Positions 47,225 through 64,000 of a DNA stretch of 64,000 nt are shown piece after piece. The translations under genes and the position numbers were made by a program. The stretch is from NCBI GenBank assembly GCA_965279515.1, contig CBDIID010000003.1:1920001-1984000 (forward strand). Reading direction: 5' to 3'. The notes beneath the pieces were generated by a model. It was given only the letters and a program-made list of their open reading frames with translations, was not told where the DNA came from and searched no databases. Origin of the DNA: Turneriella sp. Lineage in GTDB: Bacteria > Spirochaetota > Leptospiria > Turneriellales > Turneriellaceae. Numbering within the stretch: the first letter of the stretch is position 1; each line of letters begins with the position of its first letter.

Positions 47225-47234
47225 GAAAAAACTC

Positions 47235-48488
47235 CTAAGGATTGTTGAAATGTCCTGCGGGCCAGGGGTTTGCATACGCCGGGTTATTGATAAACTTCGT
47301 ATCGGTGAGCGACTTCAGAAATTCAATGAGGTCAGCGCGTTCTTGCGTGGTAAGGGAAAATCCCTTGACGAAAGAATTTTTCAAGGGAGAAAGTTTTCCA
47401 TCTCCTGCATTAGGTCCCGAAGCAATCAACCTGCCCCCGCGGGCGTAATGATCAATGACGCCGTCGAGATCTGTGACCGAACCATCATGCATGTAAGGTG
47501 CGGTGAGTTCGACATTGCGAAGTGTGGGCGCCTTAAAACGCCCCATATCCGCCGCATTTCCCGTTACGTCCTTAATTCCCTGGCTGGCCGTGGGATACGC
47601 ACCGGTACCGCCCAGATTATAGAGACCATTATTCGCAAAATCTATTTCGGCAAAAGATTTGCGCGAGTGATCCTCGCTGTTCGTAAAATTGATACCTGTG
47701 TGGCAATGAAAACATTCGAGATTTTCGCTGTTAAAGAGATTCAACCCGTTTTTCGCTGATGCGCTAAGAGCTGCAGAGTCGCCCCGGTTATAGCGGTCAA
47801 AAGGAGAATCAAAGCCGATGATGGAGCGTTGAAAGACTTCGAGTGCGCGGGTTATATTCCCCATGGAAAACGGATCGCCCGTATCCGGAAATGCAGTGCG
47901 GAAAAGTTTTTGATAAATTGAATCTGCCCGCATTTCAGCGAGCCGGACATTTTCAAAGCCAGTCATGCCAAGTTCGACCGGATTCTCCCCGAAAATCGGT
48001 ACCTGCGCCTGAATATTCAGTCTTTTCATCAGCGGGTTTTCCCACGTAACGACCGGCTGCCACGCAATGTTGACAATATGCATACTGTTGCGCGGATGAA
48101 AATCCCCGGTCGAACCTTTCGCAGTGAGAATACGATCTGTTCCCGATTTTGAAAAATCAGCGCTGCCATCGTTGACATTCATGTCATCGGCAAATGCATT
48201 CGCCTGGTGATGGCAGGTGGCGCAGGCAAACGTCTTGTTACCGGAGAGCCGTTTGTCATAGAAAAGATGGCGTCCAAGTTCAACCTTTTCGTACGTCATC
48301 GGATTATCCGCCAGGACCCGCGGCGGTGGAATATTCGCGGGAATTTGCCAAACGTAATCTCCCGAGGGCGTTATCAGCTTCGGGGTGAAATTCTCGCACC
48401 CCACAGCCACAAGCAGCCCACCGCACGCGCCGAGCGCGCGTACGGAGACCGCTTGTTTTAAGGCGGTTAAAAAGCCGGAAACAATCAT
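47235..48488 (-). CDS. MbnH-type di-heme enzyme (bCcP/MauG superfamily), paralog 1
   Basis: LGRHLFYD.RLS, CATCH, CFHCH and FKAPTLRN...APYMHDG; adjacent to an MbnP gene. Confidence 0.88.
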   Translation of the reverse strand: MIVSGFLTALKQAVSVRALGACGGLLVAVGCENFTPKLITPSGDYVWQIPANIPPPRVLADNPMTYEKVELGRHLFYDKRLSGNKTFACATCHHQANAFADDMNVNDGSADFSKSGTDRILTAKGSTGDFHPRNSMHIVNIAWQPVVTWENPLMKRLNIQAQVPIFGENPVELGMTGFENVRLAEMRADSIYQKLFRTAFPDTGDPFSMGNITRALEVFQRSIIGFDSPFDRYNRGDSAALSASAKNGLNLFNSENLECFHCHTGINFTNSEDHSRKSFAEIDFANNGLYNLGGTGAYPTASQGIKDVTGNAADMGRFKAPTLRNVELTAPYMHDGSVTDLDGVIDHYARGGRLIASGPNAGDGKLSPLKNSFVKGFSLTTQERADLIEFLKSLTDTKFINNPAYANPWPAGHFNNP

Positions 48489-49459
48489 TCGACGCGGAAA
48501 AAAGACTGGGTCGAACTCTGTGTCACCTGACCACCGCTTACCGCCGCATACGATGTTCCGTTTGTCGCATCCCGTGCTGCATTTGTTGTACCTGTATAAC
48601 TATAGGCGAGTCCAAGGCGAGGCATGACAAAACGGCATTCCGGATCGCCGGTTCCCGACATACATCCGGCAGGTGCTCCCTGGTCCGCAGTGTTCAGGTT
48701 CAGATCGCGCACGACTTCTTTAAGGTCGGCGATAATGCGCAGCGAAGAAAGTGACGACAAACCGTTTTGGTAGGCTTCGGGAATATTCAGAGTCACCTCG
48801 GGGCGATTCGGTGTGGTACAGGTTACCTGATCCTGCGTTGCCCCTGTTTGTGTGCAGCTTAAGCTACCAATATGAACATTGAAAGCCGAAGCGTCATATC
48901 CGCCACCGCCTGAGGTCAGAAAGTCGAGCCGGGCTGCTTTGCGTCCACTCGTCCACGACCAGTAAAGAGCCGCAACATTGAGAGGGGCTGGAGCATTGTT
49001 CACGTCAAGATGATTCAAGCTGGATGGAATCCCGAGCGTGAATTTAATCTTCGAGTACTTATCGCCTGCCGTCACCGCAACAGTCCCCTTAACCTGGGAA
49101 TTTGTTGCGCTCGTAGGGCCGGTAGTCGCTGCGCAACCGCCCGTACCATTCTCAAAATCGAGGAGTGTAACGTTTTGGTACTGCCAGGTATTGTCTGCTG
49201 TCAAAGAAACGGTGACCTCACTGCCGTCCGATTTCACCAGTTTTACGTCATGAATATAGAAACGAAAATCGCGCGCAGCAAGCTGGGTCGACCCGGTACC
49301 AACACCGGAATAAGTCGTACCGCAGGCAAAATCTGCCGAACCGACTTTGGCTTGAAAATTCAGGACTAAATCCGTGGTATTCGCATCGATCTGGGTTTTT
49401 ACGCATCCCGCGGTAAAAAACATACCGCAAAGCATGGTTATGATTATTTTGTTTTTCAT
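48485..49459 (-). CDS. MbnP-family copper-binding lipoprotein, paralog 1
   Basis: Lipobox, DFRFYIHDV, WQYQNVTLLDFE, F.LGIP..LNH, WSW, HIGS..C and CMS...DPEC. Confidence 0.85.
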   Translation of the reverse strand: MKNKIIITMLCGMFFTAGCVKTQIDANTTDLVLNFQAKVGSADFACGTTYSGVGTGSTQLAARDFRFYIHDVKLVKSDGSEVTVSLTADNTWQYQNVTLLDFENGTGGCAATTGPTSATNSQVKGTVAVTAGDKYSKIKFTLGIPSSLNHLDVNNAPAPLNVAALYWSWTSGRKAARLDFLTSGGGGYDASAFNVHIGSLSCTQTGATQDQVTCTTPNRPEVTLNIPEAYQNGLSSLSSLRIIADLKEVVRDLNLNTADQGAPAGCMSGTGDPECRFVMPRLGLAYSYTGTTNAARDATNGTSYAAVSGGQVTQSSTQSFFRVE

Positions 49460-49483
49460 TTTTTTCTCCTTGTAAATTTTGGG

Positions 49484-50131
49484 TTAAAAAGTCATGGCAA
49501 CGCTCAGAAGGGGTTGCACGCTTAAGGCACTCGCCGAATAATCCGTACTTGCCCCGCCGCCGCTGGCCGCCTGGCTGACGGTCCAAAAAAAATACGAGAA
49601 ATTCACCGCGCCACCGACAAAGATATGGGTGGCGATTTCATAATCGTATCCCACCCGCAAAGCGGCGAGCGGACTGACTGCTGTGTACGTGGTCGCCGTT
49701 GCCCCCGAAATCTTGAGCAGGTTTATGCTCGCGCCGAGACCGAGACCCACGTAGAGATTTTTTACTGGAAAATACCGCGCATACGCTGCGACAGGCACCT
49801 GGGTAAGCTGGGTCGTATTCGTCGCAGAACCGATCGTAGCATTATTCTTGTAGGTAACCTGGTATCCGCCGGATATCCCCAATTGAGAGCTACTGTTACC
49901 GTACCACAGGGTTACGCCAAACGCCGGCGAAAGCACGGCACCGTTATCGGAGCCATAGACCGTCTCAACCGCAGAAGCGTATGAGCTTTTTGTGGCGTAA
50001 TTGATACCGCCATAAACCTGACCGATAAGATTCGCAGAGCGCCAAAACTCGTGGGGTGCTGGCTTGGTTTCTGCGGACAGCGTTCCAAAACCGGCAAATA
50101 TTGAACATAGAAAAATAATTCGTAATTTCAT
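49484..50131 (-). CDS. Small outer-membrane beta-barrel protein
   Basis: GAGG RBS, signal peptide, ~8 amphipathic beta-strands, C-terminal Phe. Confidence 0.7.
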   Translation of the reverse strand: MKLRIIFLCSIFAGFGTLSAETKPAPHEFWRSANLIGQVYGGINYATKSSYASAVETVYGSDNGAVLSPAFGVTLWYGNSSSQLGISGGYQVTYKNNATIGSATNTTQLTQVPVAAYARYFPVKNLYVGLGLGASINLLKISGATATTYTAVSPLAALRVGYDYEIATHIFVGGAVNFSYFFWTVSQAASGGGASTDYSASALSVQPLLSVAMTF

Positions 50132-50249
50132 AAATTCCTCGTAATTAAAAATTTTTGATGATCGCGCACACCGGAAGTGAGCAAACAAAACGCCTGACCA
50201 CGCGACTCAATGGCGCGGGCTTTAAAGCGGAAATTGCTACTTGTGTGCG

Positions 50250-50639
50250 CTAAGCCCGGGGGGGCGGAGTTTCAATGTCGGCAAGGTATGAAATGTAAAG
50301 AGGAGAGCTGATTTGAATGGCGGAAACATGGTATTGCACCGCGGTTAATCCCACCTGATTGCCCGTGAATACCCAGCGCGCGAACGCTGGCAGCACAGAA
50401 TCGTCGGCTTCGTCGGCGCAGGGATGGTCGGCTTTCAGAATTTTCGCCTTTGCCATGGCCTTGTTCAGCCTGTTGCATCCGCAGGGGCAATCTTTGCCCT
50501 TTTGCACTTTCTGCTTTGTATGAACGCAGAGAAAATATTTCGGTTGCTGCGCCGTAGCAACTTCAAAAGCACCAGCGAGCTGAGCAATAAACAGCGTGAG
50601 GCCAAAGCCGTGCAAGATTTTACACCGGAACACGCGCAT
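50250..50639 (-). CDS. Cys-rich PPPR-ending leader protein A (candidate stalling uORF)
   Basis: Signal/TM, CVH...CPCGC...HPC, ends DIETPPPRA; paralog of the ORFs at 56745, 60174 and 61970. Start uncertain. Confidence 0.8.
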   Translation of the reverse strand: MRVFRCKILHGFGLTLFIAQLAGAFEVATAQQPKYFLCVHTKQKVQKGKDCPCGCNRLNKAMAKAKILKADHPCADEADDSVLPAFARWVFTGNQVGLTAVQYHVSAIQISSPLYISYLADIETPPPRA

Positions 50640-50701
50640 GCGTCCAGAATTGATGGCGAGACGCTCCGTCAAGAGATATAAAGATCTTTTATTTCACTTG
50701 T

Positions 50702-51793
50702 TTACCCTGCCTCGTTGTGGTTGTGGTGAGAGTAAAGGCTGAAATTCCATGAAACGCCGAAATTCAGCCTGCCCTCGACTTTCTGCTGCGGCTCGTTCAA
50801 CATCTGCAAAACCGGAAATTCTTTGGAGATAAAACAGCCGAGTTCGAGCGGCAGATTCAAACGCATACCCACAGTCCAGAACGTGATAAGACCCCCACTG
50901 TTAACAATTATCGCGTCATGGTCGCGGGACTTCATCATATAACGCGCGGTTAACTCGGTGAAGGTAAAGAGTTTCGTGCGATCGAGATCAAATGCCCTGA
51001 ACGAAAGCGCGACGCCGCCGTCGATGCGGTCTCCGATTTTATAGGTCTTGTAATAGCCGCGGTAGATATAACTGCCGCTCGCGGTCAGTGTGAAGACATT
51101 CGCAAATTGTTTACTGGCTGCAAGACCCGCCATAAAATCTACGCTCCCACTGCCGGGTGTCGCCGACGGATCGAGAGAAAACTGATCTGTTCCCCCGGCG
51201 CCCGAGACCACATGATAGCTCGGCTGCGGAATGTTGCCGCCCGCAACCTGCGCAGCGGGTAGAGAATTCAAGGCCACCGACTCGCTGGCGCCCGCGAGGT
51301 TGCCGGTGGGTAACTTGACCCCGCCCAACCCCGCGAGGGTCCAGCCTGCGCCGGAGAAAAATTTCACCTTGCCATTCAGCCAGAGGTCGGTGAGACCCGC
51401 GACATTTCCCGCGTCGATGAGCTTGTAGGCAGTATTCGAATCAAGCACGCCCTCGCGTAAGCGGTGCCCGTAATACCACCCGATCGTCGCCGATGCGTCG
51501 AGCCATGAGAGAATGCCATAACCCAAAGTCACGTTCGAGATCGACCCCAGGCCCAGCGTGTCGATATGCGATCCCGCCGTCTTCATCTTCTGTGTCGCGT
51601 CTGAGATCGCCACGTCAGGGTATTCTGCGTACGAAGTAAAACTCTGCATAATGGAGAGCGAGAAATGATGGCGCTCAATCGTATCGGGCATGATCACGCT
51701 GCCGGTGGCCCCCGTCGTTCCGGGCCCATGGTCGGCGTGTACGAAACTTTGCAGCAGGGATAGAAACAAAAAAACGGAGAGAATATTTTTCAT
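50702..51793 (-). CDS. Outer-membrane beta-barrel transporter, paralog 2, with His-rich tail
   Basis: Signal peptide then DHGP; GLTD...KLPTG...PGSGSVD; ends SHHNHNEAG. Confidence 0.75.
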   Translation of the reverse strand: MKNILSVFLFLSLLQSFVHADHGPGTTGATGSVIMPDTIERHHFSLSIMQSFTSYAEYPDVAISDATQKMKTAGSHIDTLGLGSISNVTLGYGILSWLDASATIGWYYGHRLREGVLDSNTAYKLIDAGNVAGLTDLWLNGKVKFFSGAGWTLAGLGGVKLPTGNLAGASESVALNSLPAAQVAGGNIPQPSYHVVSGAGGTDQFSLDPSATPGSGSVDFMAGLAASKQFANVFTLTASGSYIYRGYYKTYKIGDRIDGGVALSFRAFDLDRTKLFTFTELTARYMMKSRDHDAIIVNSGGLITFWTVGMRLNLPLELGCFISKEFPVLQMLNEPQQKVEGRLNFGVSWNFSLYSHHNHNEAG

Positions 51794-51815
51794 ATAATTT
51801 CCTTGAAATAAAACA

Positions 51816-52988
51816 TTATGGATTGTTCGATGACCCCTTCGGCCAGGGGTTCGAGAATTTGGGATTCGTCACAAATTCCGTATCGGTGAGGCTACGCAGA
51901 AATTCTATCAGGTCGCTTTTGTCGCCAGCAGTAAAACTGCCACTAAAGTTCTTTACCAGCGGATTCTTGCGCGTGTTGAGAGCCCCGTCGCCATCGAAAC
52001 CGGCGCCTTTACCGGTTACATTGCGGCCGCCGCGCTTATAATGCTCGATCACATTATCGAGAGTATCGATCGAACCGTCGTGCATATACGGCGCCGTGAG
52101 TTCGATATTTCTGAGCGTCGGTGCCTTAAAGCTGCCGTTATCAGCGACATTGCCCGTCACGAGGTTGAGGCCGCTGTTGCCGCTCGGGAAGACATTGGCG
52201 TTGCCAACGTTATAGATCCCATTGTTCAGAAACTGGATGTCGGCCGCTACCTTGCTGTAATAGTCTTCGGCGCTCGAAAAGGTAATACCCGCATGGCAGT
52301 GAAAACAATCCGCGGTTTCACCAAAAAAGAGGTTCATACCACGCTTTGCCGCTGCGCTCATCGCCGTCTTATCGGTGCCCGTGATATACTTGTCGTATGG
52401 AGATTTGCCGCTGATCAGCGTACGCTGAAAGGCCTCGAGCGCATCGCGTATGTGAGCGACAGAAATCGTCGGGGCATCCTTGGCAAAGGCGGCATTAAAG
52501 AGACCAACGTATTTGTCATCGGCCGCAAGCCGCGTCACGACTGTAGCTTCCATACCCGCAAGCCCCAGCTCGACCGGCGTCGTACCAAAGAGCGGCACAT
52601 TTGCCTGTACATTGAGCCGTGTCTGCAATGAATTCGCCCAGGTCAGCACCGGCTGGTACGCGAGGTTAATCAGCGACATCGAGTTGCGCGGATGCGCCTC
52701 ACCTGTCGAGCCGATGCCCACGGTGAGGCCGTCTGAGAACGCCTTGTTCTGGTGGTGGCAGCCTGCACAGGCCTGCGTCTGGTTACCTGACAGGCGTTTG
52801 TCGTAGAAAAGATGGCGACCCAGATCGACCTTCTCGTTGGTCATCGGGTTATTTTCAAATTCGCGTGGCCGTGGGAAACCGGGGGGGAGATCCCACTTAA
52901 ATGCGCTGGGCTCCTGGATGTATTTGAAATCCAGGTTCTGGCAGCCGACGGCCACGAGGGCCAGAGCGAAACTCAATACCGTACGCAT
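51816..52988 (-). CDS. MbnH-type di-heme enzyme, paralog 2
   Basis: Lipobox, CAGCH, CFHCH and FKAPTLRNIELTAPYMHDG. Confidence 0.88.
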   Translation of the reverse strand: MRTVLSFALALVAVGCQNLDFKYIQEPSAFKWDLPPGFPRPREFENNPMTNEKVDLGRHLFYDKRLSGNQTQACAGCHHQNKAFSDGLTVGIGSTGEAHPRNSMSLINLAYQPVLTWANSLQTRLNVQANVPLFGTTPVELGLAGMEATVVTRLAADDKYVGLFNAAFAKDAPTISVAHIRDALEAFQRTLISGKSPYDKYITGTDKTAMSAAAKRGMNLFFGETADCFHCHAGITFSSAEDYYSKVAADIQFLNNGIYNVGNANVFPSGNSGLNLVTGNVADNGSFKAPTLRNIELTAPYMHDGSIDTLDNVIEHYKRGGRNVTGKGAGFDGDGALNTRKNPLVKNFSGSFTAGDKSDLIEFLRSLTDTEFVTNPKFSNPWPKGSSNNP

Positions 52989-53972
52989 CTATTCTACCCT
53001 GAAGAAGACCTGGCCCGAGGTAGGGTAAACAGTGGGAGATCCCGCACTGCTCGCAGTTAAGCCGCGCGCGGTGGATGACCCCGTATAAGAGAAGTCGACA
53101 CCCCAGTTGTTGAGTACGGCCTTACACTCGGGATCGCTGCGGTCAGAGTGACAGCCCGGCTGCGTGCCCCCGGTATTCGCGATCGAGAAATCCGTGTCTT
53201 TATAGAGCTCTTTCGCGTCGGCGACCACTGTCTGCCCGTAAGTGAAGTTCAATTCTATTGCCGGCCGGTTCGATGTGTCGCAGACAATGTCGGGCGGCGA
53301 CGCGAAGGTATCACAATCGATACTGCCCAAATGCGTGAAAAACGGATTGTACGTGTTTACGTTGAACTCCACGACCGCATGTTTGTAGCCGGTCGTCCAG
53401 CTCCAGAACATATACGTCACGTTGAGCGGCGCATTGGTGTTGCCGACGCCATTCTGATTGAGGTTCTGCGGTACGCCGAGCTTGAAGCGTAGCTTCGTAA
53501 ACGTGAGCGCCTCGCTCGCGGCGATGGTGCCACGCACCGTGGTATTCGTACCGGCATTACCCTGTGCAGCGCACTGCGTACTAGCGGCGGCATTCTCAAA
53601 ATCGAGCAGCGCGAGGTTCTGGTACTGGTAGGCGGCATCTTGAGTGAGGGTGACGGCGACTTCGCTGCCATTGGCCCTCACGAAACGCACGTCGTGCACA
53701 AAGAAGCGGAAATCTTTGGGCACGAGCGTCGCTCCGCCGCCAGCGCCGACACCGGAATAACTGGCCGTCGAACAATCGAAGACCTGCGTCCCGACCTTGG
53801 CAGCAAACTGTATCGTCACATTTTGCTGGGGTACGGAGCTGCCCGAACCCGAGCCCGCCGAAGACCCCGCTTCGGCTTTCTTTTTTTCTTCATCAATCGC
53901 CTGCAATATTTTATTGTCTGCGCATGCACTCAGCGAAAGAAAAAGTGCGGCGAAAAATAGATATATTTTCAT
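52989..53972 (-). CDS. MbnP-family copper-binding lipoprotein, paralog 2
   Basis: LSAC lipobox, DFRFFVHDV, LALLDFE, MFWSWTTGYKH, HLGS..C and CHS...DPEC. Confidence 0.85.
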   Translation of the reverse strand: MKIYLFFAALFLSLSACADNKILQAIDEEKKKAEAGSSAGSGSGSSVPQQNVTIQFAAKVGTQVFDCSTASYSGVGAGGGATLVPKDFRFFVHDVRFVRANGSEVAVTLTQDAAYQYQNLALLDFENAAASTQCAAQGNAGTNTTVRGTIAASEALTFTKLRFKLGVPQNLNQNGVGNTNAPLNVTYMFWSWTTGYKHAVVEFNVNTYNPFFTHLGSIDCDTFASPPDIVCDTSNRPAIELNFTYGQTVVADAKELYKDTDFSIANTGGTQPGCHSDRSDPECKAVLNNWGVDFSYTGSSTARGLTASSAGSPTVYPTSGQVFFRVE

Positions 53973-53980
53973 ATCATCTC

Positions 53981-55030
53981 CTAATCCAATCGGAATTCTT
54001 TTCTTTTCAGAAAATTTTCGTCGGTAAGGGTCAGTAAAAACTCTTTGAGGTCGGCTTTATCCTGCGTCGAAAAATGAAATCCGCCTGCCGGTAGTTTGGC
54101 ATCGAGTGTCGCAGACCGCTGAATACCCGATGAATAATGTTCGATCACGGCCTCAAGCGTCGCAAAACGCCCGTCGTGCATGTAGGGCTTTGTCACGGCA
54201 ATGTTGCGCAATGTGGGAGTGCGGAATTTGCCGATGTCTTCGTTCTTGCGGGTGATACGAAACCGGCCCATGAGCTGACCTTCGTGGTCGGGGGGATATT
54301 TGGTATCGAGACCGTTGTTGTGATAACCATTATCGGTCAACAGCGGGCCGTTATGACACACGGCGCATTTGCCGGTATACAGATTGCGCCCCCGTGCTTG
54401 TGCGTCGTTGAGCATGCCCTCTTGTCTCAGCACACGATCATAGAGCGAATCGAAAGAAACGAGGGTTCGCACGAATTGCGCCAGCGCCTGCAGCATGTTT
54501 GTGATAGACACCTGCTGGTCGGGAAACGCCTTTTCAAATGCGCGGCGGTAAGCACCGTCAGCCCTGAGCTTATCGAGCGAAACGCCGATCGGTTGTCCCA
54601 TTTCATCTGCGTTATGCAATGGTCCAATCAGCTGCGACTCAATATTTTTAGCACCGCCATCCCAGAATAAGCCGTTGTTCGACCAGGCGAGGTTAATGAG
54701 AGCCGGAGAGTTGCGCGTCGCCGGTTTGCCCGACACGCCGCTCTTCGCCAATGCGACGCCATCGCTGAACGCCAGCGATTGATCGTGACAGGTCGCGCAG
54801 CTGACTTTGTCATTGGCAGAAAGCCTTGGCTCATAAAACAGCCTGCGCCCGAGCGCGATAATTTCCTTTCGGAATCTATTGGTATCAGGCTCGGGCAACG
54901 GCCCCAGAAAGCGCAGTGTTTTGGGATGTGCATATTCGTGCACGGCAAGCACCGGATTTTCAGACCGGCAAGCGATCACGAACAGCGCACCCCAAAGCGC
55001 GGCAAGCCGCGCTTTGTTGGTCACGCGCAT
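53981..55030 (-). CDS. Di-heme cytochrome c peroxidase-like protein (MbnH-like), third and divergent copy
   Basis: LGRRLFYE.RLS, CATCH, FWDG, CAVCH and FRTPTLRN...PYMHDGR. Confidence 0.88.
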   Translation of the reverse strand: MRVTNKARLAALWGALFVIACRSENPVLAVHEYAHPKTLRFLGPLPEPDTNRFRKEIIALGRRLFYEPRLSANDKVSCATCHDQSLAFSDGVALAKSGVSGKPATRNSPALINLAWSNNGLFWDGGAKNIESQLIGPLHNADEMGQPIGVSLDKLRADGAYRRAFEKAFPDQQVSITNMLQALAQFVRTLVSFDSLYDRVLRQEGMLNDAQARGRNLYTGKCAVCHNGPLLTDNGYHNNGLDTKYPPDHEGQLMGRFRITRKNEDIGKFRTPTLRNIAVTKPYMHDGRFATLEAVIEHYSSGIQRSATLDAKLPAGGFHFSTQDKADLKEFLLTLTDENFLKRKEFRLD

Positions 55031-55032
55031 GA

Positions 55033-56634
55033 TTACGGTACGCTGGCCGAGGTTACCGAGAACACGTTGTTCTGGTAAGCGTTAGCCAAATTACCCATGA
55101 GCGCCGAATTGGTCGATGCATTGATGTACTTAGGCGACCCGGAAACTGTCGAGGTATTCACACCCGCACCACCATTAACCTGGAACAGTTTCGCCACGTT
55201 TGCCCGAACGTTAATCACCGCATTCTTGCCTTTGGTTAGCGTTATGCTCGCAGGAAAAGTTAAGGCTGTCAGGCTGCGATAATTTGCGTTTGCGCCGATA
55301 TCGAAGCCAAAATTGACAGAACCGCAACTCACGCACTGCCCGGTAATTTGTGAAAACAGGTAACTACTATTCCACATCCAGGTATACGTTGCCATATCAC
55401 GGTGAATATGCAGCTCTCCTGCTTGCAGGCTTAGGTTGTTGTTATAGGTCGAGTCTACACCAACCGAAAACTGGATGGCTGTGTAAGTCCCTGATGGCAC
55501 ATCGGCAATCGAAATTTGCTCACGGTTGGCCGCCGCAATCGTCATACCGCTATTGATGTTGCCTGGGCTAATCGCACTGTTTGTTGTCATCAGATAGTAA
55601 CTACCCGGCACGGAGTATTGCGTTGTGTCCGCTTTGGTAAGTTTAACGTTGCTTATCCAATAGCGAAAACGCGTAAAACGCAACGTGTTACTGTGATCAT
55701 CGGTATACGTCGTATTCAGCGCAAAGGTGGTGCCGTTAAAATCCTTGGCGACGTTAATTGTCGCAGTGCCGACATCGGCTTCAGAAACCGCCGTGGTAGT
55801 GGCGCTTACAAGGCTTACCGCAGAAGCAAAGTTTGCGGCTACGGTACTCATCTGGCCGGCATTATTGAAGCCGTTGATAGCACGCTTTGTAACACCCGTA
55901 TCGACGCTAACTGTGCCAATATCGATACCCGCGAACAATTTTTCTACGTCAATCTTTGCGACAATCGTTGGGGCAGAGGTCGCACTGACAGTGATATTCG
56001 TGGGAAAGCTCAGTGTTTTAGTCTGATAATTTGCATTCGTACCAAATTCGAGCGCAAAAGCCTGCTGCCCTGAGCAGCTTGTGCAGGTTCCCGAAGTTTT
56101 GCCAAAAATGTAGCTGGTAACCCACGACCACTCGATGTTGCCCATATGAGAAAAGAGGTGAAGTTCCCCTGTTCTCAAGCTCAGATCGTTATTATACGTT
56201 GAATCGACGCCTACGCTGAATTTAATCCCTTTATAGCTTCCGACAGGGACTTTTTTCAGGGTCACATTTTCCCTATTTCCCGCCGCCAGATTAAAGTTAG
56301 GCACGCGTTCGCCAGTCGTATCGCCCGTGACAGCATTATTCTGCGAAAGCAGGTAATACGCGTCCGGCACCGCAACTTCGGAATTGTCGTCCTTGATGAA
56401 TTTAACGTTCGATACCCAATAACGAACCTCGTTGATGGTGATTGTGTTTCCCGCTGCTGTCGTATACGATGTGCCGAGAGCAAAAGCCGCCCCATTGAAA
56501 TACTTCGGCATTTGCAGCGAAACCTCGCCCGTTTCGCTGGCAGATGCAGCGGTGGTACCAGATTCCTCTGAATTTTTTGCGCAGGCACCCAATAGCGCGC
56601 TGCAAAGTAAGATAAGATAAAATTTCGATTTCAT
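55033..56634 (-). CDS. Lipoprotein with two tandem MbnP-like domains
   Basis: GGAGG RBS, LGAC lipobox; internal duplication with RYW(V/I)SNVK, YYL, FSVGVDSTYN, WxW and CxxC in each half. Confidence 0.8.
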   Translation of the reverse strand: MKSKFYLILLCSALLGACAKNSEESGTTAASASETGEVSLQMPKYFNGAAFALGTSYTTAAGNTITINEVRYWVSNVKFIKDDNSEVAVPDAYYLLSQNNAVTGDTTGERVPNFNLAAGNRENVTLKKVPVGSYKGIKFSVGVDSTYNNDLSLRTGELHLFSHMGNIEWSWVTSYIFGKTSGTCTSCSGQQAFALEFGTNANYQTKTLSFPTNITVSATSAPTIVAKIDVEKLFAGIDIGTVSVDTGVTKRAINGFNNAGQMSTVAANFASAVSLVSATTTAVSEADVGTATINVAKDFNGTTFALNTTYTDDHSNTLRFTRFRYWISNVKLTKADTTQYSVPGSYYLMTTNSAISPGNINSGMTIAAANREQISIADVPSGTYTAIQFSVGVDSTYNNNLSLQAGELHIHRDMATYTWMWNSSYLFSQITGQCVSCGSVNFGFDIGANANYRSLTALTFPASITLTKGKNAVINVRANVAKLFQVNGGAGVNTSTVSGSPKYINASTNSALMGNLANAYQNNVFSVTSASVP

Positions 56635-56744
56635 ATTTCCTCCAAATTCCAAAATCTGCCGTAAACTTACGGCGCGCACACGGCTCGCCTTAGCTGACCG
56701 CGCGCAAATAGCCTGAGATTTTGCTCAGGGTATGTTATGTGAAT

Positions 56745-57137
56745 TTAGAGCGCCCGGGGGGGCGGAGTTTCAATGTCGGCGAGATAGGATTTATAGAGAG
56801 GAGAACTGATTTGAATTAGCGAAATACGATACTGCACCGCGGTTAATGCCACTTCATTGCCCGTGAACACCCAGCGCGCGAAAGCTGGCAGCACAGAATC
56901 TTCGGCCTCATCGGCGCAAATACGGTCAGATTTCAGAATTTTCGCTTTTGCCATTGCTTTTTTTAACTTACTGCAACCGCAGGGGCAAGCTTTGTGCTTT
57001 TCAATTTTTTGTTTGGTATGAACGCAGAGATAATATTTGGGTTGCTGCGCGTGGATTACCTCAAAGGCACCGCTGATTTGCGCGAAAAACAACACCAAAC
57101 CGAAGCCGTGAAGAACTTTGTAGCGCTTTAGCCCCAC
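56745..57137 (-). CDS. Cys-rich PPPR-ending leader protein B (candidate stalling uORF)
   Basis: Closely similar to leader A in protein and DNA; ends DIETPPPRAL. GTG start at 57137 inferred by alignment. Confidence 0.8.
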   Translation of the reverse strand: MGLKRYKVLHGFGLVLFFAQISGAFEVIHAQQPKYYLCVHTKQKIEKHKACPCGCSKLKKAMAKAKILKSDRICADEAEDSVLPAFARWVFTGNEVALTAVQYRISLIQISSPLYKSYLADIETPPPRAL

Positions 57138-57197
57138 AGCTGAAACCCCGCCCAAACAAGTGCCCGGTCAACCATTTTTCAAGATGAGTCGCGAGTC

Positions 57198-57258: not shown

Positions 57259-58605
57259 TTATTTCACAGAGAGAATGTAAGCCGCAAGCGCCTCGAAATC
57301 CTTCGCCTGCAACTGGTCTTCGAAACCCGGCATCTGTGGATAGCCTGGCCTTTTTTTGCCCGGCTTGCGTATCCACTGCATGAGTTGGGCTTCTTTACCC
57401 TTGTAAATCGAGACCATTTCGACCACGGGTGGGCCCACGAGCTTGGTCTTGATCTGGTGGCAGCCGACGCAATAGTTGTCGAAAAGCTTTTGCCCCTCGC
57501 CCACGAGAGGATTCTCTTTCGCCGGCCCGGCCTCGGGTTTCTTCTGCGCCGCGACTGCCGCATTAGCCTCGGCCACAAGCTTCTCGTATTCAGCCGTGCG
57601 TTCGGCGACGAGTTTCTTGTGTGGCCCCAAAGCGGTCTCGCGAATCACATGACGCCCCGACACCATGAGGATAACCACGATAGTCAGCGCAATCACGATC
57701 TTCGAAAAACGGCTGCCGATGGCCTCGGCAGGGCCAGAAACCGACTTCCACATCCAGACGAGCGTGAGAATGCCGACGACGACGGCAGGCGCCAGAATGG
57801 CGAGCAACGCCCAACTGATTGCCTTAGAAGGCAAGGTCAAGAGCACCAGCGGTCCCGCGACAAACTGCAGCAGCGTCGCCATGAAGGCGAGCGAGAGCAT
57901 GCGCTTGCGAATCTCATAGCGCGACAGATTGACAAACTTCTCTGCGTGCGGATATCCCTCGCGGCCAAAATACCAGAACAGAAAAAGTCCGGTCACTGTC
58001 AGCGAGGCTAACACGAAGTGAAAATAACGCGGGAAAACATTCGGCAATGCAAGCGCCGAGAAGAATCCCGAGACACTGCCCCATTTTTCCGGGTAGAGCA
58101 TCAGGTTGATGTTCGTCAGAAAAATCAACGGTATCGTCAGAAAGATCGCCGATGCAGCGCCGATCATCGCGATATGCAGCCCCTTGTTATCCTTGAGGAT
58201 ATCCCACAGATACTTGTGCGGGTACGTGAGTAAAAAACCCACCGTCACGAGCGGCACAATCGCAATCCAAAAGAGTCCCGTCAGCGCATTCGCCGAATAA
58301 AAATACACCGTGTAGAGCGTATTGATGAGCAACAGCGGAGCTACCCCCATCACGACGGCGAGACTCTTGTTGACGGTGATCGTCTTGGCAATCTCATGCG
58401 CAAGCTGGTCATAGTCTTTCTCTTTAAGACCCTTGAGCTGTGCGAAAAATGTCAACAGTGTTCCGCCCAGCATCAGGTTCACGAAAAGAATATGCACCAG
58501 AAACGAGAAGACCAACAGACCGACTGCGAGCCACTCGGGTAGCGGCAAGGGTAGCGGAATGTCTTTTGGCACCGGCACCGCGGCGAGAAATAGCGCGAAA
58601 TTCAT
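57259..58605 (-). CDS. Multi-TM membrane protein with C-terminal c-type cytochrome (cytochrome bd-related partner subunit)
   Basis: About 9 TMs, HILFVN and RYFHF; C-terminal CVGCH...MP heme c domain; coupled to the upstream gene. Confidence 0.75.
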   Translation of the reverse strand: MNFALFLAAVPVPKDIPLPLPLPEWLAVGLLVFSFLVHILFVNLMLGGTLLTFFAQLKGLKEKDYDQLAHEIAKTITVNKSLAVVMGVAPLLLINTLYTVYFYSANALTGLFWIAIVPLVTVGFLLTYPHKYLWDILKDNKGLHIAMIGAASAIFLTIPLIFLTNINLMLYPEKWGSVSGFFSALALPNVFPRYFHFVLASLTVTGLFLFWYFGREGYPHAEKFVNLSRYEIRKRMLSLAFMATLLQFVAGPLVLLTLPSKAISWALLAILAPAVVVGILTLVWMWKSVSGPAEAIGSRFSKIVIALTIVVILMVSGRHVIRETALGPHKKLVAERTAEYEKLVAEANAAVAAQKKPEAGPAKENPLVGEGQKLFDNYCVGCHQIKTKLVGPPVVEMVSIYKGKEAQLMQWIRKPGKKRPGYPQMPGFEDQLQAKDFEALAAYILSVK

Positions 58606-60002
58606 TTGCGCACCTCTGCCTCTGGCAGCCGCACACCGACTTCCTGTGCACCCTCGGCATTATCGGGATATTTTGCTGCGGCGAGAATGTAACTCGCGAG
58701 CGCACCCAACTCGGCCTCATTGCCAGGAAAAGGCGGCATGAAGTAGCGCGACTTATGCATGTTGCGCATATAGCCGACCATGGCATCTGCATTGAAATTA
58801 TCTTTACCCAAAAGGTTCTCAAACTTTTTCACCACAGAGTTGATGCCGCCCGAAGTGTGGCAGCGGCTGCATGCAAGCATAAAGATGTCTTTGCCCGATT
58901 CTACAGCATTTGCAGATGTAACCTCGCGGTACTTCACATAGGTCGCATGCTTCAAGATGCCGTCACGGTTTAAGAGCGCCATCTCTTTCGGCCGCACCAT
59001 GTTCGAATACATGTAATCGGCGATCACATAGGGTTTGCGAATGAATTCACGCGTACGCTCGAAGGTGACCATCAGCGTAATCGCCAGCCCTATCGGTAAC
59101 ACAAGAGCCAAGGCCGGTATACGCCAGCGGCCAATGATGCCCAGCACAGCGACAAAACCGATGACGCCTGCGGCGACTGCCATGATAACGAGCAGATTGT
59201 CATACCATGACGAGAACTCCATCGTGCCGATCGCGACCGACATGTTCTGCCGCATCATATCGGGTATGACCCAATAATAATAGATCGAACCGATGATGAG
59301 AAATGGCGTCCACGCGAGTACCCACGAACCCGTAAGACGTACGGCAGATCGTCTGAGCGCGTCATTATTCCGCACAAAAAACGGAATCAGGGCAAAAACG
59401 ACAGATCCGCCCATGACCATCGCGAGCGGAGTACGAAACGCCAGCTGCGCAGGGTAAACGGGATTCAGAAACCCCTTAATCAGCGACTGGTCGGTACGCC
59501 AGCTGCCCGGGTCCATCATGAAACTCAATATCGCGACAATGATCGCCATGGTGACCCAAGAGGCGATCGAAAGCGCGATGCCGAAGCGAATGTGTTTCCA
59601 TTTTTTCTCTGGTGAAGCATTTGATCTGCGCCAGCTGAGAAAATAAATCAGAATGAGGATGACTTCGGTGACGAAGACAATCCACTCCACGAACCAGGCG
59701 GCGAAAAAGACCCGTATCAGGCTGCCAATCGATGCAGGGCTGACAAGGCTCGCCGAGAGCCAGATGCCGACGCCGGTCATGGCGCCGAGCGATGTGGTGA
59801 TGATGAATGCGAAGAACATGACCTTGCGGGCCAGTTCATCCCATTCTTTGCTGTTATTCTTGTACCCGACGTATTCGAGATACGTCACATACGGTATGAG
59901 GCCCACCGCCAAAGCGTGGTTAATCACCACGTGCAGAATCGCAATGATCGCGATTAAAATGCGGTTGCCCATAAAATCCAAATGAAATATGGGAAAGTCC
60001 AT
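58602..60002 (-). CDS. Cytochrome bd subunit I-like membrane protein fused to cytochrome c
   Basis: ILHVVINH, GAMTGVGIW, WFVEW.VFVTE, ILSFMMDPGSW and RE.IRKPY resemble CydA TM motifs; C-terminal CSRCH...MPPF; no evident Q-loop. Confidence 0.72.
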   Translation of the reverse strand: MDFPIFHLDFMGNRILIAIIAILHVVINHALAVGLIPYVTYLEYVGYKNNSKEWDELARKVMFFAFIITTSLGAMTGVGIWLSASLVSPASIGSLIRVFFAAWFVEWIVFVTEVILILIYFLSWRRSNASPEKKWKHIRFGIALSIASWVTMAIIVAILSFMMDPGSWRTDQSLIKGFLNPVYPAQLAFRTPLAMVMGGSVVFALIPFFVRNNDALRRSAVRLTGSWVLAWTPFLIIGSIYYYWVIPDMMRQNMSVAIGTMEFSSWYDNLLVIMAVAAGVIGFVAVLGIIGRWRIPALALVLPIGLAITLMVTFERTREFIRKPYVIADYMYSNMVRPKEMALLNRDGILKHATYVKYREVTSANAVESGKDIFMLACSRCHTSGGINSVVKKFENLLGKDNFNADAMVGYMRNMHKSRYFMPPFPGNEAELGALASYILAAAKYPDNAEGAQEVGVRLPEAEVRK

Positions 60003-60173: not shown

Positions 60174-60575
60174 TTAGGCCGCAGCAGATCGGGGTGGAGG
60201 CGGAGTTACTTCAGCGATAATACTATGATAAAATGGATCAATACTGGGGACAACCACAGTGAAATAACGGGGAGTCGGCACCGAAAACGGTAAGTATATG
60301 CCGCCGAAGCGATCAAAATTCGGCATGTGAGCAATATCGTCATCGGGGCTGGCACAGACATCGTCGGCGTCGACGAGCACCGCGATTTTTTTGGGTGACT
60401 TATGCTTGTGCCCGCACGGACAGGGATTTCCCTTCTGTACGCGCACCTTCATGTGGGGACACATATAATATGTTTTCACCTGTAGATTCGAAACGAGGTC
60501 GGGCACAGCCGACAATTGCAATGTAAAAAGAAAAAGACCACAAAGATGAATCGGCGTGAGAAAGCGGATCAGCAA
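60174..60575 (-). CDS. Cys/His-rich PPPR-ending leader protein C (candidate stalling uORF)
   Basis: Signal/TM, CPH...CPCGHKH...DVC, ends EVTPPPPRSAAA. Start uncertain (TTG at 60575 or 60641). Confidence 0.75.
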   Translation of the reverse strand: MLIRFLTPIHLCGLFLFTLQLSAVPDLVSNLQVKTYYMCPHMKVRVQKGNPCPCGHKHKSPKKIAVLVDADDVCASPDDDIAHMPNFDRFGGIYLPFSVPTPRYFTVVVPSIDPFYHSIIAEVTPPPPRSAAA

Positions 60576-60661
60576 GTTATGACCAAAGACTTTTTTCGTA
60601 CAACCGGTAAAGAAATTTCGCGAAGACTTTACGACGTTCAAAGCAAGAAGACTCTGACAAC

Positions 60662-61248: not shown

Positions 61249-61875
61249 TCAGCCGGGACAGACCGGGCTCAGCTTAGCGGTAATTTTCACATCGATATCG
61301 GGCCACAGCTTGCTTTGGCCGTCTTTACCCTTATGCAGGTCTTTGCAGGCCAGGTTCAAGGCCGCGAGCGGTGAAAGGGCGTTGAATTCAGCGATATCAA
61401 GCCTAAAGGCGACTTCGAGCCCTGCACCGTCGACGCGGCGCACCGTAGCCGAGACCTTTTTCTCGATGCCGTTGATTTTCAGGAGCAGGGTGGCGTTGTT
61501 TGCGCTCACCGATTCGACGCGTGCCCTGATCTCCCCCTTATTTTTCATCGCTGCGAAAAACGCGTAATAAATCTTCTTATCGCGGTCGGGATTATTCGTA
61601 TTCACGCTCGCGGCATCGACGATGAATTCGGCTTCTGCAAAGACCTCTTCGGGTTTCGTGGCGGTGCGCGCATTTTCAGTTCGAATCGAATTAAAAGTTC
61701 CCGAAACACCGAGGCGCTCTGTAAACTTGTATGCAGTCCATTGCAGCTTTGCCTGCGTGGGGTCGAAATCAAAGCGGCAGAGGCTGTAATCCGGTTTTAT
61801 TTCTGCTTTCTTGCAAGACCAGAAGAGTGCCAAGATAAGTACAATGCCAACAATGTGACTCTTTCGCAAAATCAT
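61249..61875 (-). CDS. YceI-family lipoprotein
   Basis: WSC lipobox; WTAYK...VSGTF and SVNTNNPDRD motifs. Confidence 0.8.
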   Translation of the reverse strand: MILRKSHIVGIVLILALFWSCKKAEIKPDYSLCRFDFDPTQAKLQWTAYKFTERLGVSGTFNSIRTENARTATKPEEVFAEAEFIVDAASVNTNNPDRDKKIYYAFFAAMKNKGEIRARVESVSANNATLLLKINGIEKKVSATVRRVDGAGLEVAFRLDIAEFNALSPLAALNLACKDLHKGKDGQSKLWPDIDVKITAKLSPVCPG

Positions 61876-61969
61876 AGTTGGGAAAAGCCTCTGCGATACC
61901 GCGCGTAAAGCCGGTTTTCACAACAGCGGTTTACGCTGTATCCATAAGATAGATTTGCTGCGGAGCGCC

Positions 61970-62326
61970 GTGCTGAGAAAGATTACCGCCACGCTGATTT
62001 GCCTCTTGCTTCTTGCAACTGCCACCGAGGCGGTCGGACTTATCTCACACTCGACCGGCGTACTCAAATGCCCCAGCTGCAAAATGAAAATGCAGAAAAT
62101 CGACGACTGCCGCTGCCATAAGAAAAAACCTGTTTCCGCGGCGAAAATCCACGACCCCTGCGGCGACAACGAGGGGGATTTCCACATTTCCTTCGACCGG
62201 GTGCAGGGTGTTGCGGCGCCCGAAGTCTTTGTGCCGGCCGCTTTTGTCAGTACATACCTCTCTCTCTCTTATCGCTACCCCACCGGTATCACGAGCGATA
62301 TTCCGCAGCCGCCGCCGCGGCGTTAA
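61970..62326 (+). CDS. Cys-rich PPPR-ending leader protein D (candidate stalling uORF)
   Basis: GGAG + GTG start, signal peptide, CPSC...CRCH...HDPC, ends DIPQPPPRR; directly upstream of the TonB-dependent receptor. Confidence 0.8.
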   Translation: MLRKITATLICLLLLATATEAVGLISHSTGVLKCPSCKMKMQKIDDCRCHKKKPVSAAKIHDPCGDNEGDFHISFDRVQGVAAPEVFVPAAFVSTYLSLSYRYPTGITSDIPQPPPRR

Positions 62327-62400
62327 CTCCTGCCCAACAAACAAATAACCACTGAAAGTGGTGCATCCGCGCTAAGGCGCGAGATAAAGGAGTTATGTTT

Positions 62401-64000
62401 ATGCGATTATTTACGATCAAAGCCGTTGCCGTTCTTCTCATCACGAGCAGCGCAATCTGGGTACAGACACCCGAAAAGAAAGATGAAAAAACTAAAAAAA
62501 ATCCCGTGGAAATTCCCGCTAACGCAGCGGATCCTGAAGGTGTAAAAACCATCGCGGTTGAAAAAGGCGAGACTAAACCTCTCGAAGAAGAAGAAACCCT
62601 GCCCGACGTCGTCGTCACGGCCACGCGCGAAGAAGAAAAACGCCGCGATGTGCCGATGTCGATCGGCAAGATCAAACGCGACTCGATTAAAGATACGAAG
62701 CCGATCCATCCATCCGAGCTGATGAACCAGTCGCCGGGTGTGTTTGTGAACACGACAAGCGGTGAGGGACACCAGACAATGATCCGCCACCCGATCACGA
62801 CCGGCTCGGTGTATCTTTACCTCGAAGACGGTGTGCCGACGCGCTCACCAGGATTTTTCAACCATAACGCGCTCTTCGAAATTAACGTGCCACAAGCCGG
62901 CGGTATTGAAATCATCAAAGGCCCTGGTTCAGCGCTCTATGGCAGCGATGCACTCGGTGGGGTTGTCAACGTGCTGACGCGCCCTGTGACAAAAGACCGC
63001 GAAATCGACCTGAGCTTCGAATACGGCGGTTTCGGCTGGAAAAGGCTTTTGGCCTCGGCCGGCGAAAAGTTTGGCGACCATGCCATACGCGTCGATGGAA
63101 ACATGACCGATTCGAAGGGCTGGCGTGACGGTACGAAATACTCGCGCCAAAGCGGTACGCTGCGTTGGGATGCAGTCTTCGGCAAACATAAGTTCAAGAC
63201 CGTCGTCACGGCTTCGAATATCGACCAGCAATCGGCAGGCGCCGCGGCATTGCGCGAGGCGGATTATCTGAATAATTCGCAGGCGAACTACATGCAATTC
63301 TCCTACCGCCGCGTCAAAGCCGTACGTGTTTCAACTCAGTACGATTACGAAATCAGCCAGGGCAACAAGCTATCGGCCATTCTCTACGGACGCTACAACG
63401 AGATGGGGCAATTACCGAATTATATCGGCGCACAGACAACCCAGCGGGAAAACAACTTGCGCAATGCCTCGGCGGGATTGCTTTTCAAGCACCTGCTCGA
63501 TATTCAGCTTTTTCACTCAAAGCTGATTTCGGGTATCGACGCCGATTATTCGCCGGGAGTCTTTAACGAATGGAATGTAACGACTACAAAATCCGGCGAT
63601 TATTTTACGAGTTACACAACCGGCGCATTGCAATACGACTATGATGTTAAATTTTATCAGGCATCGCCGTTTGTCCAGCTCGAATCATCGCCGCTTACGC
63701 GAAAACTAAAACTGCAACTCGGTGCACGGTATGACTACATGGGTTATATCTATAAGAATAACCTGAGCGTCATTCAAACCGGTAATACACGCCGCCCCGA
63801 AGATGCATCGCCCAGCTTCAACCACCTCTCGCCTAAAGCGGGCGTCGTGTACGACTTCTTCGCCGAACTCAATGTCTTCGCGAGTTACCGCCACGGCTTT
63901 CGTGTGCCACAGCAAAGCGACCTGTTTCGCCAGGGCAGCGCCAATTCGGCCCTTGGCATCAAACCGATTAAAATCGATAGCTTTGAAATCGGTGTGAGGG
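62401..64000 (+). CDS. TonB-dependent receptor (3' end outside window; absent from the ORF track)
   Basis: My translation: AAGGAG RBS, signal peptide, TonB box LPDVVVTATR, plug (SPGV, GEGH, LEDGVP, FNHNAL, IEIIKGPGSALYGSDALGGVVN), then beta-strands towards the window edge. Confidence 0.95.
   Translation, partial: MRLFTIKAVAVLLITSSAIWVQTPEKKDEKTKKNPVEIPANAADPEGVKTIAVEKGETKPLEEEETLPDVVVTATREEEKRRDVPMSIGKIKRDSIKDTKPIHPSELMNQSPGVFVNTTSGEGHQTMIRHPITTGSVYLYLEDGVPTRSPGFFNHNALFEINVPQAGGIEIIKGPGSALYGSDALGGVVNVLTRPVTKDREIDLSFEYGGFGWKRLLASAGEKFGDHAIRVDGNMTDSKGWRDGTKYSRQSGTLRWDAVFGKHKFKTVVTASNIDQQSAGAAALREADYLNNSQANYMQFSYRRVKAVRVSTQYDYEISQGNKLSAILYGRYNEMGQLPNYIGAQTTQRENNLRNASAGLLFKHLLDIQLFHSKLISGIDADYSPGVFNEWNVTTTKSGDYFTSYTTGALQYDYDVKFYQASPFVQLESSPLTRKLKLQLGARYDYMGYIYKNNLSVIQTGNTRRPEDASPSFNHLSPKAGVVYDFFAELNVFASYRHGFRVPQQSDLFRQGSANSALGIKPIKIDSFEIGVR

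Follow-up and report, generated by a model that had tools for sequence, protein, structure and literature searches.

The window analysed here is a 64,000-nucleotide (nt) stretch of the Turneriella sp. contig CBDIID010000003.1 (positions 1,920,001 to 1,984,000 of the forward strand), near the end of which a small open reading frame (ORF), named leader D, precedes a gene for a TonB-dependent receptor. The subject of this work is an RNA helix predicted between the stop codon of leader D and the receptor's Shine–Dalgarno (SD) sequence, and the control of receptor translation that it may provide. Leader D occupies positions 61970–62326 of the + strand, on which all elements of the ORF, the spacer and the receptor described below lie, and encodes 118 amino acids (aa) from a GTG at 61970 with an SD sequence GGAG at 61962–61965; the longest frame opens at TTG 61955 and corresponds to 123 aa. 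The product begins with a basic and then hydrophobic N-terminus, which by inspection is predicted to be an export signal; a Cys-rich part resembling a sensor comes next, then a linker that varies, and the protein ends in PQPPPRR. The Cys cluster (62069–62161) comprises CPSC (62069–62080), C-R-C (62108–62116) and Cys64 (62159–62161), and the last invariant Cys is located 49 residues ahead of the PP motif. The putative pause motif (62309–62323) consists of Pro-Pro-Pro (62309–62317) followed by Arg-Arg (62318–62323). Pfam, NCBIfam and relaxed Pfam searches assign the protein to no family, and in its AlphaFold2 (AF2) model, built from the family alignment and with a mean predicted local distance difference test score of 63.8, the N-terminal helix alone is confident (residues 3–34 of the 123-aa form). 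Rather than a short leader, leader D is a 118-aa, four-Cys, predicted exported protein of a conserved family.

The receptor gene runs from 62401 to 64000 and past the end of the window, and in the genome it encodes 728 aa with plug and beta-barrel Pfam domains. Comparison with orthologs indicates that its start is most likely ATG 62401 (MRLF...), 8 nt after the GGAG, which leaves a spacer of 74 nt. The ATG at 62395 was rejected as a start, since the closest ortholog has ATA there and keeps the second ATG. A search of the + strand of the spacer for terminator-like and sigma-70-like sites found none.

The spacer is closed by a helix of 8 base pairs (bp). Its 5′ arm, TAACTCCT (62324–62331), consists of the leader D stop codon TAA (62324–62326) and the anti-SD sequence CTCCT, and its 3′ arm, AGGAGTTA (62388–62395), contains the receptor SD sequence GGAG (62389–62392). 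Two hairpins lie between the arms: the first (62348–62362, ACCACT-GAA-AGTGGT) has a 6-bp stem and a GAA loop, whereas the second (62365–62385) has the core CGCGC-TAAG-GCGCG (62368–62381), to which the minimum free energy (MFE) structure adds three pairs. The positions originally given for both arms and both hairpins are exact, and folding of 62280–62420 with RNAfold, which had been proposed as a check, places the helix and both hairpins in the MFE structure (−41.9 kcal/mol) as well as in the centroid. This fold has a z-score of −2.30, with 4/200 shuffled sequences folding equally well; for the 88-nt core at 62318–62405 the corresponding values are −2.94 and 2/200. In the 88-nt fold, GCGU (62320–62323) also pairs with AUGC (62401–62404), adding four pairs over the receptor start codon that are absent from the centroid of that fold. 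An Rfam search of 61850–62500 returned nothing credible, the sole match being to a small RNA model on the opposite strand (E = 0.18).

To estimate how frequent such helices are genome-wide, ORFs were called crudely, which yielded 4899 of them covering 87.5% of the genome. At 1187 same-strand junctions, in which the region around the upstream stop codon (−12 to +15) was compared with the SD region of the next gene (−20 to −2), a perfect helix of at least 8 bp occurs 5 times, and at the 414 junctions with GGAG or GAGG it occurs twice, the leader D junction being one of the two. When ensemble pairing between the SD core and the stop region is considered instead, the leader D junction is joint first of 251 background junctions; pairing of at least 0.9 is reached at 5/251, and two of those five belong to the leader D gene family. 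CTCC immediately 3′ of the stop codon is found in 10/4899 ORFs, and TTA, the triplet that follows the receptor GGAG, is absent from the 15 commonest triplets after GGAG genome-wide. From one genome alone, the evidence against chance is weak. The only other junction of the genome with a predicted SD-to-stop-region pairing of 1.00 lies outside the window (G000:C3, near 1598112, − strand), where the final codons of an ORF that stops at TGA contain CCTCCTGTA, which pairs with TACAGGAGG of the following gene at a distance of 58 nt.

It is the orthologs of leader D that decide the matter. Six distinct loci carry an ortholog of this type (D-type): the window itself, L005, L013, L015, L007+/L029 and the metagenomic L031. 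A search of genome contigs for extra loci yielded only L005, and a metagenome search only L031. The proteins are 117–118 aa long and 38–79% identical to the window protein, and exactly two residues separate PPP from the stop codon in all D-type sequences seen, one of which has Gln in place of Arg. An orthologous receptor lies downstream in 4/5 of the other loci (tblastn); the sequence of L031 ends before the receptor could show. The spacers vary from 72 to 110 nt and are unalignable outside the helix arms. Anchored at the stop codon, CTCC is the sole invariant block in the next 24 positions in 6/6 orthologs; anchored at GGAG, only AA-GGAG-T.AT is invariant, again in 6/6. The triplet after GGAG is TTA in 5/6 and TAA in 1/6, and the stop codon is TAA in four orthologs, TAG in one and TGA in one, each of which can pair with the UUA or UAA 3′ of GGAG through G-U wobble.

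Folding of these junctions gives the same picture in all six. The predicted SD-to-stop-region pairing is 0.96–1.00, the probability of the CUCC:GGAG pairing is 0.99–1.00 and the unpaired fraction of GGAG is 0.00, with two to three inner hairpins of differing sequence joining the arms. The helix survives folding contexts of up to about 550 nt in 5/6 orthologs; in L007+, which has the weakest helix, pairing drops to 0.61 and then to 0.00 in larger contexts. As the arms are kept in 6/6 orthologs within otherwise unalignable spacers, and such pairing is rare in the background, the comparison confirms at the sequence level that the predicted anti-SD/SD helix is real, more than chance and conserved. 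The codons of the PPPR motif differ synonymously between the D-type orthologs, which argues that selection acts on the peptide. The base directly after the stop codon (62327), part of the CUCC, is C in 6/6 orthologs. A C right after the stop codon leads to poor termination in E. coli and would here prolong the stay of the ribosome on the anti-SD.

Leader D is one of four window paralogs that head MbnP/MbnH and receptor operons. The other three lie on the − strand: paralog A (50250–50672) ends in PPPRA, paralog B (56745–57155) in PPPRAL and paralog C (60174–60641) in PPPPRSAAA. For A and C, the spacers measure 118 and 171 nt and the stop-region/SD pairing is 0.00 and 0.01, respectively, and these two may work differently, for example by a route like that of the Bordetella leader CruR described below. 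For paralog B the pairing is 0.96: CTCTAAATTC (56741–56750, − strand), which spans its own stop codon, pairs with GAATTTGGAG (56640–56649), the SD sequence of an MbnP-like gene, in a helix of 10 bp with one G-U pair. The true start of this MbnP-like gene is ATG 56634 and not GTG 56679, with which its longest ORF opens. In the L005 ortholog of paralog B the helix, read by eye, is one bp shorter on both sides (CCTCTAAATC/GATTTGGAGG). In L005 (− strand), about 60 nt before the MbnP-like start, and also in L017 and L019, a conserved insert of about 60 nt separates the original SD sequence from the start codon; it contains a GGAGRCGGC...GYCGYCTYCC hairpin, followed by GATACYTCGTGTATC and a second SD sequence. 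The insert has no Rfam match, and a motif search found no copy in the genome of the window.

Within the genus, 13/13 other genomes have homologs of the leader family, as does one further genus of the same taxonomic family; none were found in the rest of the order, and a search of the remaining class with a D-type profile was negative. Among 1.84 billion protein representatives, a profile search recovered only 20 cluster representatives, all of the same type and 101–135 aa long, save one fragment and one 223-aa form. Among 32 aligned members, four Cys residues in the pattern C-x12-C-x-C-x14-C and a C-terminal PP are invariant, to which the D-type adds CPxC. The distance from the last invariant Cys to PP is 49 residues in 14/32 members and 50 in 11/32 (range 42–51), yet this stretch of near-constant length is the least conserved part of the protein. 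At 13/30 distinct family junctions the stop-region/SD pairing is at least 0.9. Members ending in PPDxPS have the anti-SD within their last three codons (TACTCCTT/AAGGAGTA, TATTCCTTCA/TGAAGGAGTA and CCCCTCTT/GGGAGGGG), and two members ending in KPG have TAGCTCC/GGAGTTA ahead of an unrelated 277-aa gene. In the genome as a whole, PPP falls within the last 10 residues of 26/4899 ORFs. A 123-aa ORF outside the window (G000:C3:2030303-2030675, − strand) encodes a product that is hydrophobic at the N-terminus, rich in Cys and His in the middle and terminated by LPPPRRS, and is followed about 60 nt on by GGAGG and a gene with a signal-like start and a His-rich stretch. It may be a further leader of another family, similar to the CutF protein discussed below.

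The surroundings of leader D are of a copper type. Three MbnP-type genes lie on the − strand at 55033–56634 (with two MbnP stretches), 52989–53972 and 48485–49459, and each is followed by a MauG/MbnH-type di-haem gene on the same strand (53981–55030, 51816–52988 and 47235–48488). Together with the genes for two cytochrome c proteins (57259–60002) and a YceI-like gene (61249–61875), the region 46166–56634 (− strand) is a large copper-type locus. The window paralogs head operons of MbnP, MbnH/MauG-like di-haem enzymes and cytochrome c, and in L016 a family member precedes an AhpC/TSA-redoxin gene.

Two characterized leaders of copper-related operons bear on this arrangement. In Bordetella pertussis, CruR (Bp2923, DUF2946) is equipped with an export signal and a CXXC motif, carries RAPP at its C-terminus and precedes the TonB-dependent transporter gene bfrG (PMC9426467). 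Arrest on RAPP blocks Rho-dependent termination, and the arrest is relieved when CXXC senses copper; the two motifs lie 45 residues apart, a distance that is conserved and was shown to be important (PMC9426467). Homologs of cruR head operons with genes for a TonB-dependent transporter, MbnPH, Sco, PCuAC and AhpC_TSA, and the CruR spacer measures 162 nt, on which ground the authors exclude coupling (PMC9426467). The second leader, CutF of Rhodobacter capsulatus, is an exported protein with four Cys residues and a C-terminal PPP, and through a copper-induced stall the ribosome can melt the stem-loop by which the SD sequence of the next gene, cutO, is shielded (PMC9973294, 10.1101/2025.02.05.636593). 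The PPP, the Cys residues, the signal peptide and the SD-shielding stem-loop are each required, and EF-P counteracts the stall (PMC9973294, 10.1101/2025.02.05.636593). CutF-like proteins are described as scarce in Spirochaetota (PMC9973294). The supplementary texts of that paper, its lists of CutF-like proteins aside, leave spirochaetes unmentioned, and a literature search on CutF-like or DUF2946 proteins together with spirochaetes found only the scarcity remark.

That the helix couples the two genes in some way, with receptor translation tied to the end of the small ORF, is very probable. More specifically, by analogy with these precedents, leader D is fairly likely to be a cis-acting leader of the CutF/CruR kind, whose translation would control that of the receptor through a metal-responsive proline pause; this reading draws on architecture, spacing, context and precedent. 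On the free mRNA, the receptor SD sequence would be locked in a helix of 7–10 bp by the stop codon of the small ORF and the adjoining CUCC, with two to three inner hairpins joining the arms. The 5′ arm would be covered, and the SD sequence freed for a second ribosome, while a ribosome occupies the stop codon or one of the three or four codons ahead of it, and the helix would re-form upon the departure of this ribosome. Receptor output would then scale with the frequency of small-ORF translation and with the dwell time of the ribosome. The dwell time would be set by a polyproline pause at PPP, as suggested by the fixed position of PPP two codons before the stop codon and by the fixed linker of 49–50 residues between Cys and PP. 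As for CutF, this pause may be modulated by the state of the nascent chain, i.e., by metal (probably copper) on the Cys cluster, by export and by EF-P. As to polarity, since the target is an uptake-type receptor, the analogy with CruR leans toward a system that would be on when metal is scarce.

The positions at which a ribosome would open the helix were modelled by forcing all bases up to its leading edge (first base of the P site +14, or +12) to be unpaired and recomputing the accessibility of GGAG. In the free mRNA of the six D-type loci, the mean unpaired fraction of GGAG is 0.00. With the third Pro codon in the P site the modelled value rises to 0.14–0.76, and with the Arg codon, the last codon or the stop codon in place it reaches 0.23–0.83, the stop codon by itself giving 0.24–0.83. 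In all D-type loci the stop codon opens at +13, counted from the first base of the second Pro codon, which puts a PP|P-paused ribosome exactly at the foot of the helix.

A number of results weigh against the proposed metal-responsive pause, or against the helix on which it would act. At PP|P, where a polyproline stall usually occurs and the P site holds the second Pro codon and the A site the third, the modelled ribosome covers the stop codon only and GGAG remains at 0.00–0.22 unpaired. Coverage of the anti-SD by a ribosome paused on PPPR, the original idea, is therefore borne out in the model only if the pause falls within the 3′ portion of the motif or at termination, but fails at PP|P, where the SD sequence stays paired. 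The genome encodes EF-P, so that PPP need not stall and any stall must be conditional, and the proline motif of CutF alone gave no stall in a LepB reporter (PMC9973294). All six orthologs come from one genus and the phylogenetic depth is shallow. As for covariation, named in the original prediction as a check, the helix is kept by invariance together with one-sided wobble, and two-sided compensatory change is absent within the D-type set. Raw duplex energy (RNAduplex), tried as a test and rejected, does not place the junction among the 25 lowest of 1187 (background −8.8 ± 3.9 kcal/mol); since it failed to single out the junction, it was replaced by the contiguous-helix counts and the ensemble pairing given above. 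The remaining 17/30 family junctions, including those of window paralogs A and C, are without strong stop-region/SD pairing. In addition, CU-rich Pro, Ser and Thr codons pair easily with GGAG, and some of the pairings in other clades may be by-products. The full-length receptor (L042) is generic, scoring under every NCBIfam equivalog cut-off, and is no recognisable copper receptor. The DUF2946 model (PF11162) matches none of the 32 family members even at E ≤ 10; a six-frame search of the genome itself gave one match, elsewhere, below the cut-off and broken by four stop codons, and 301 sampled genomes of the phylum gave none. In a look-up with a language model, DUF2946/CzcI clusters rank with the nearest named ones (0.94), and this gives no more than a lead; judged by sequence, the leader family is not DUF2946.

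The best-surviving alternative, though still unlikely, is plain, unregulated coupling, in which any terminating ribosome opens the SD sequence and there is neither a programmed stall nor a signal. The Cys cluster and the PPPR tail would then serve a mature periplasmic protein, e.g., a metal chaperone working with the receptor. The footprint model suits this explanation, as it needs just a ribosome at the last codons or at the stop codon and leaves the SD sequence closed at the usual PP|P position, and so do the encoded EF-P and the N-terminal half of leader D, which is well conserved, like a working domain. Moreover, SD-occluding helices opened by upstream translation are classical, as in the IF3-L35-L20 operon and the coat–replicase pair of MS2. 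However, the fixed spacing from Cys to PP over a hypervariable linker and the fixed PPP-X-X-stop arrangement are hard to explain for a mature protein, and the AF2 model is poorly ordered. The architecture and neighbourhood further match those of CutF and CruR, whose mature proteins are described as undetectable or dispensable (PMC9973294; PMC9426467).

A second alternative, and a distinctly improbable one, is that the paused ribosome serves chiefly to protect the transcript against termination by Rho within the spacer, with the SD helix being secondary. CruR governs a TonB-dependent transporter in this way (PMC9426467), the first 20 nt or so after the CUCC are C/A-rich and G-poor in the window and in L005, and paralogs A and C combine longer spacers with the lack of a helix. 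Against this, the 74-nt spacer of leader D is almost wholly structured, so that a rut site would find little space, the blocks that are conserved coincide exactly with the two helix arms, and the spacer of CruR itself is far longer. Finally, chance complementarity with no function, to which the second SD-bearing junction with a comparable helix and the unremarkable duplex energy could point, is hardly credible given the conservation in 6/6 orthologs with unalignable spacers and the strong pairing at 13/30 family junctions against 5/251 in the background.

Returning to leader D as a CutF/CruR-like leader with a metal-responsive pause, a wider proposal can be put forward only tentatively. The leader family might be an independently evolved counterpart of CutF and CruR in one spirochaete lineage, in which a ruler of about 50 residues sets the four-Cys metal site just outside the ribosome when PPP is reached, and of which the four window members form a sensor bank. 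If so, the four leaders of the 14-kb locus, each having a helix of its own or none, would sense metal co-translationally as a bank and separately gate one receptor and three MbnP/MbnH-type sets. Copper-sensing translated leaders (CruR in 2022, CutF in 2023–2025) are a young class, found mainly in Proteobacteria and defined via DUF2946, and the present data suggest that Spirochaetota use this logic too, through a family unseen by the DUF2946 model. Searches by Pfam membership undercount such leaders. The clean geometry of leader D, with PPP, two codons and the stop codon, with the stop codon providing the first anti-SD pairs and with the 49–50-residue ruler, could help to settle at which point of the mRNA ribosomes of this kind have to pause for a downstream ribosome-binding site to open.

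Among known systems, the nearest in mode of action is CutF. Leader D is likewise a small, predicted exported four-Cys protein with a C-terminal PPP that comes first in its operon, and an intergenic stem-loop, here predicted and conserved, shields the SD sequence of the next gene. Leader D falls within the operational filter for CutF-like proteins (PMC9973294) with its length of less than 150 aa (118), a PP in the last 15 residues (as in 32/32 family members) and a same-strand neighbour within 1000 nt (74 nt), the putative export signal being a basic-hydrophobic N-terminus recognised by inspection only. For CutF itself, translation of the small ORF is required in cis and the proline-paused ribosome is proposed to melt the stem-loop. 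The differences are that sequence similarity is undetectable and the Cys pattern of CutF is CxxxC, and that the anti-SD of leader D begins at the stop codon itself. In addition, the target of CutF is a detoxifying multicopper oxidase, whereas here it is an uptake-type TonB receptor, and the polarity may be opposite.

With CruR, leader D shares the position of an upstream ORF that heads a copper-type operon with a TonB-dependent transporter as the next gene, a CXXC motif (CPSC in leader D), a C-terminal proline motif of the arrest type a few residues before the stop codon, and an export signal, which for leader D is predicted. The spacing from Cys to the Pro motif is conserved in both (45 residues in CruR versus 49–50 in the leader family), both products are predicted to be poorly structured, and MbnPH, thioredoxin-like and AhpC-TSA genes are syntenic. 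The CXXC motif takes the form CP[SLKR]C in the D-type, whereas other clades have C-x-H-T-K at this place, with the first Cys alone invariant. The terminal motifs differ as well, with RAPP in CruR versus PPPR-x in D-type tails and PPDxPS or PPxxKPG in other clades. Furthermore, CruR acts through Rho-dependent termination in an uncoupled spacer of 162 nt, while the 74-nt spacer of leader D is structured and predicted to sequester the SD sequence, and CruR is independent of EF-P and of its own signal peptide.

The original prediction compared the locus to secM-secA. Like the monitoring substrates SecM, MifM, VemP and the RAPP-type ApdA/ApdP, leader D would be encoded upstream, be targeted for export or to the membrane and, by arresting at its C-terminus, expose a downstream SD sequence held in a helix. 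Those systems, however, regulate Sec/YidC components and sense translocation force, whereas the target here is a metal-type receptor, and their arrest motifs (FxxxxWIxxxxGIRAGP, RAPP) are unlike PPPR. Classical translational coupling resembles the present case in that the downstream SD sequence is paired with the end of the upstream cistron and opened by a translating or terminating ribosome, but it works without a signal or a motif in the nascent chain; in leader D, a regulated dwell time is suggested by the fixed spacing together with the Cys cluster and the conserved PPP. The general idea of the original prediction, that a C-terminal proline stall unmasks the next ribosome-binding site, is experimentally established for CutF-cutO (PMC9973294, 10.1101/2025.02.05.636593), which is a closer precedent than secM-secA. 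The mechanism that it outlined is essentially that of CutF placed on a target of the CruR kind, and the leader D locus, if this reading is correct, combines the output of CutF, the unmasking of a ribosome-binding site, with the target of CruR, a TonB-dependent receptor.

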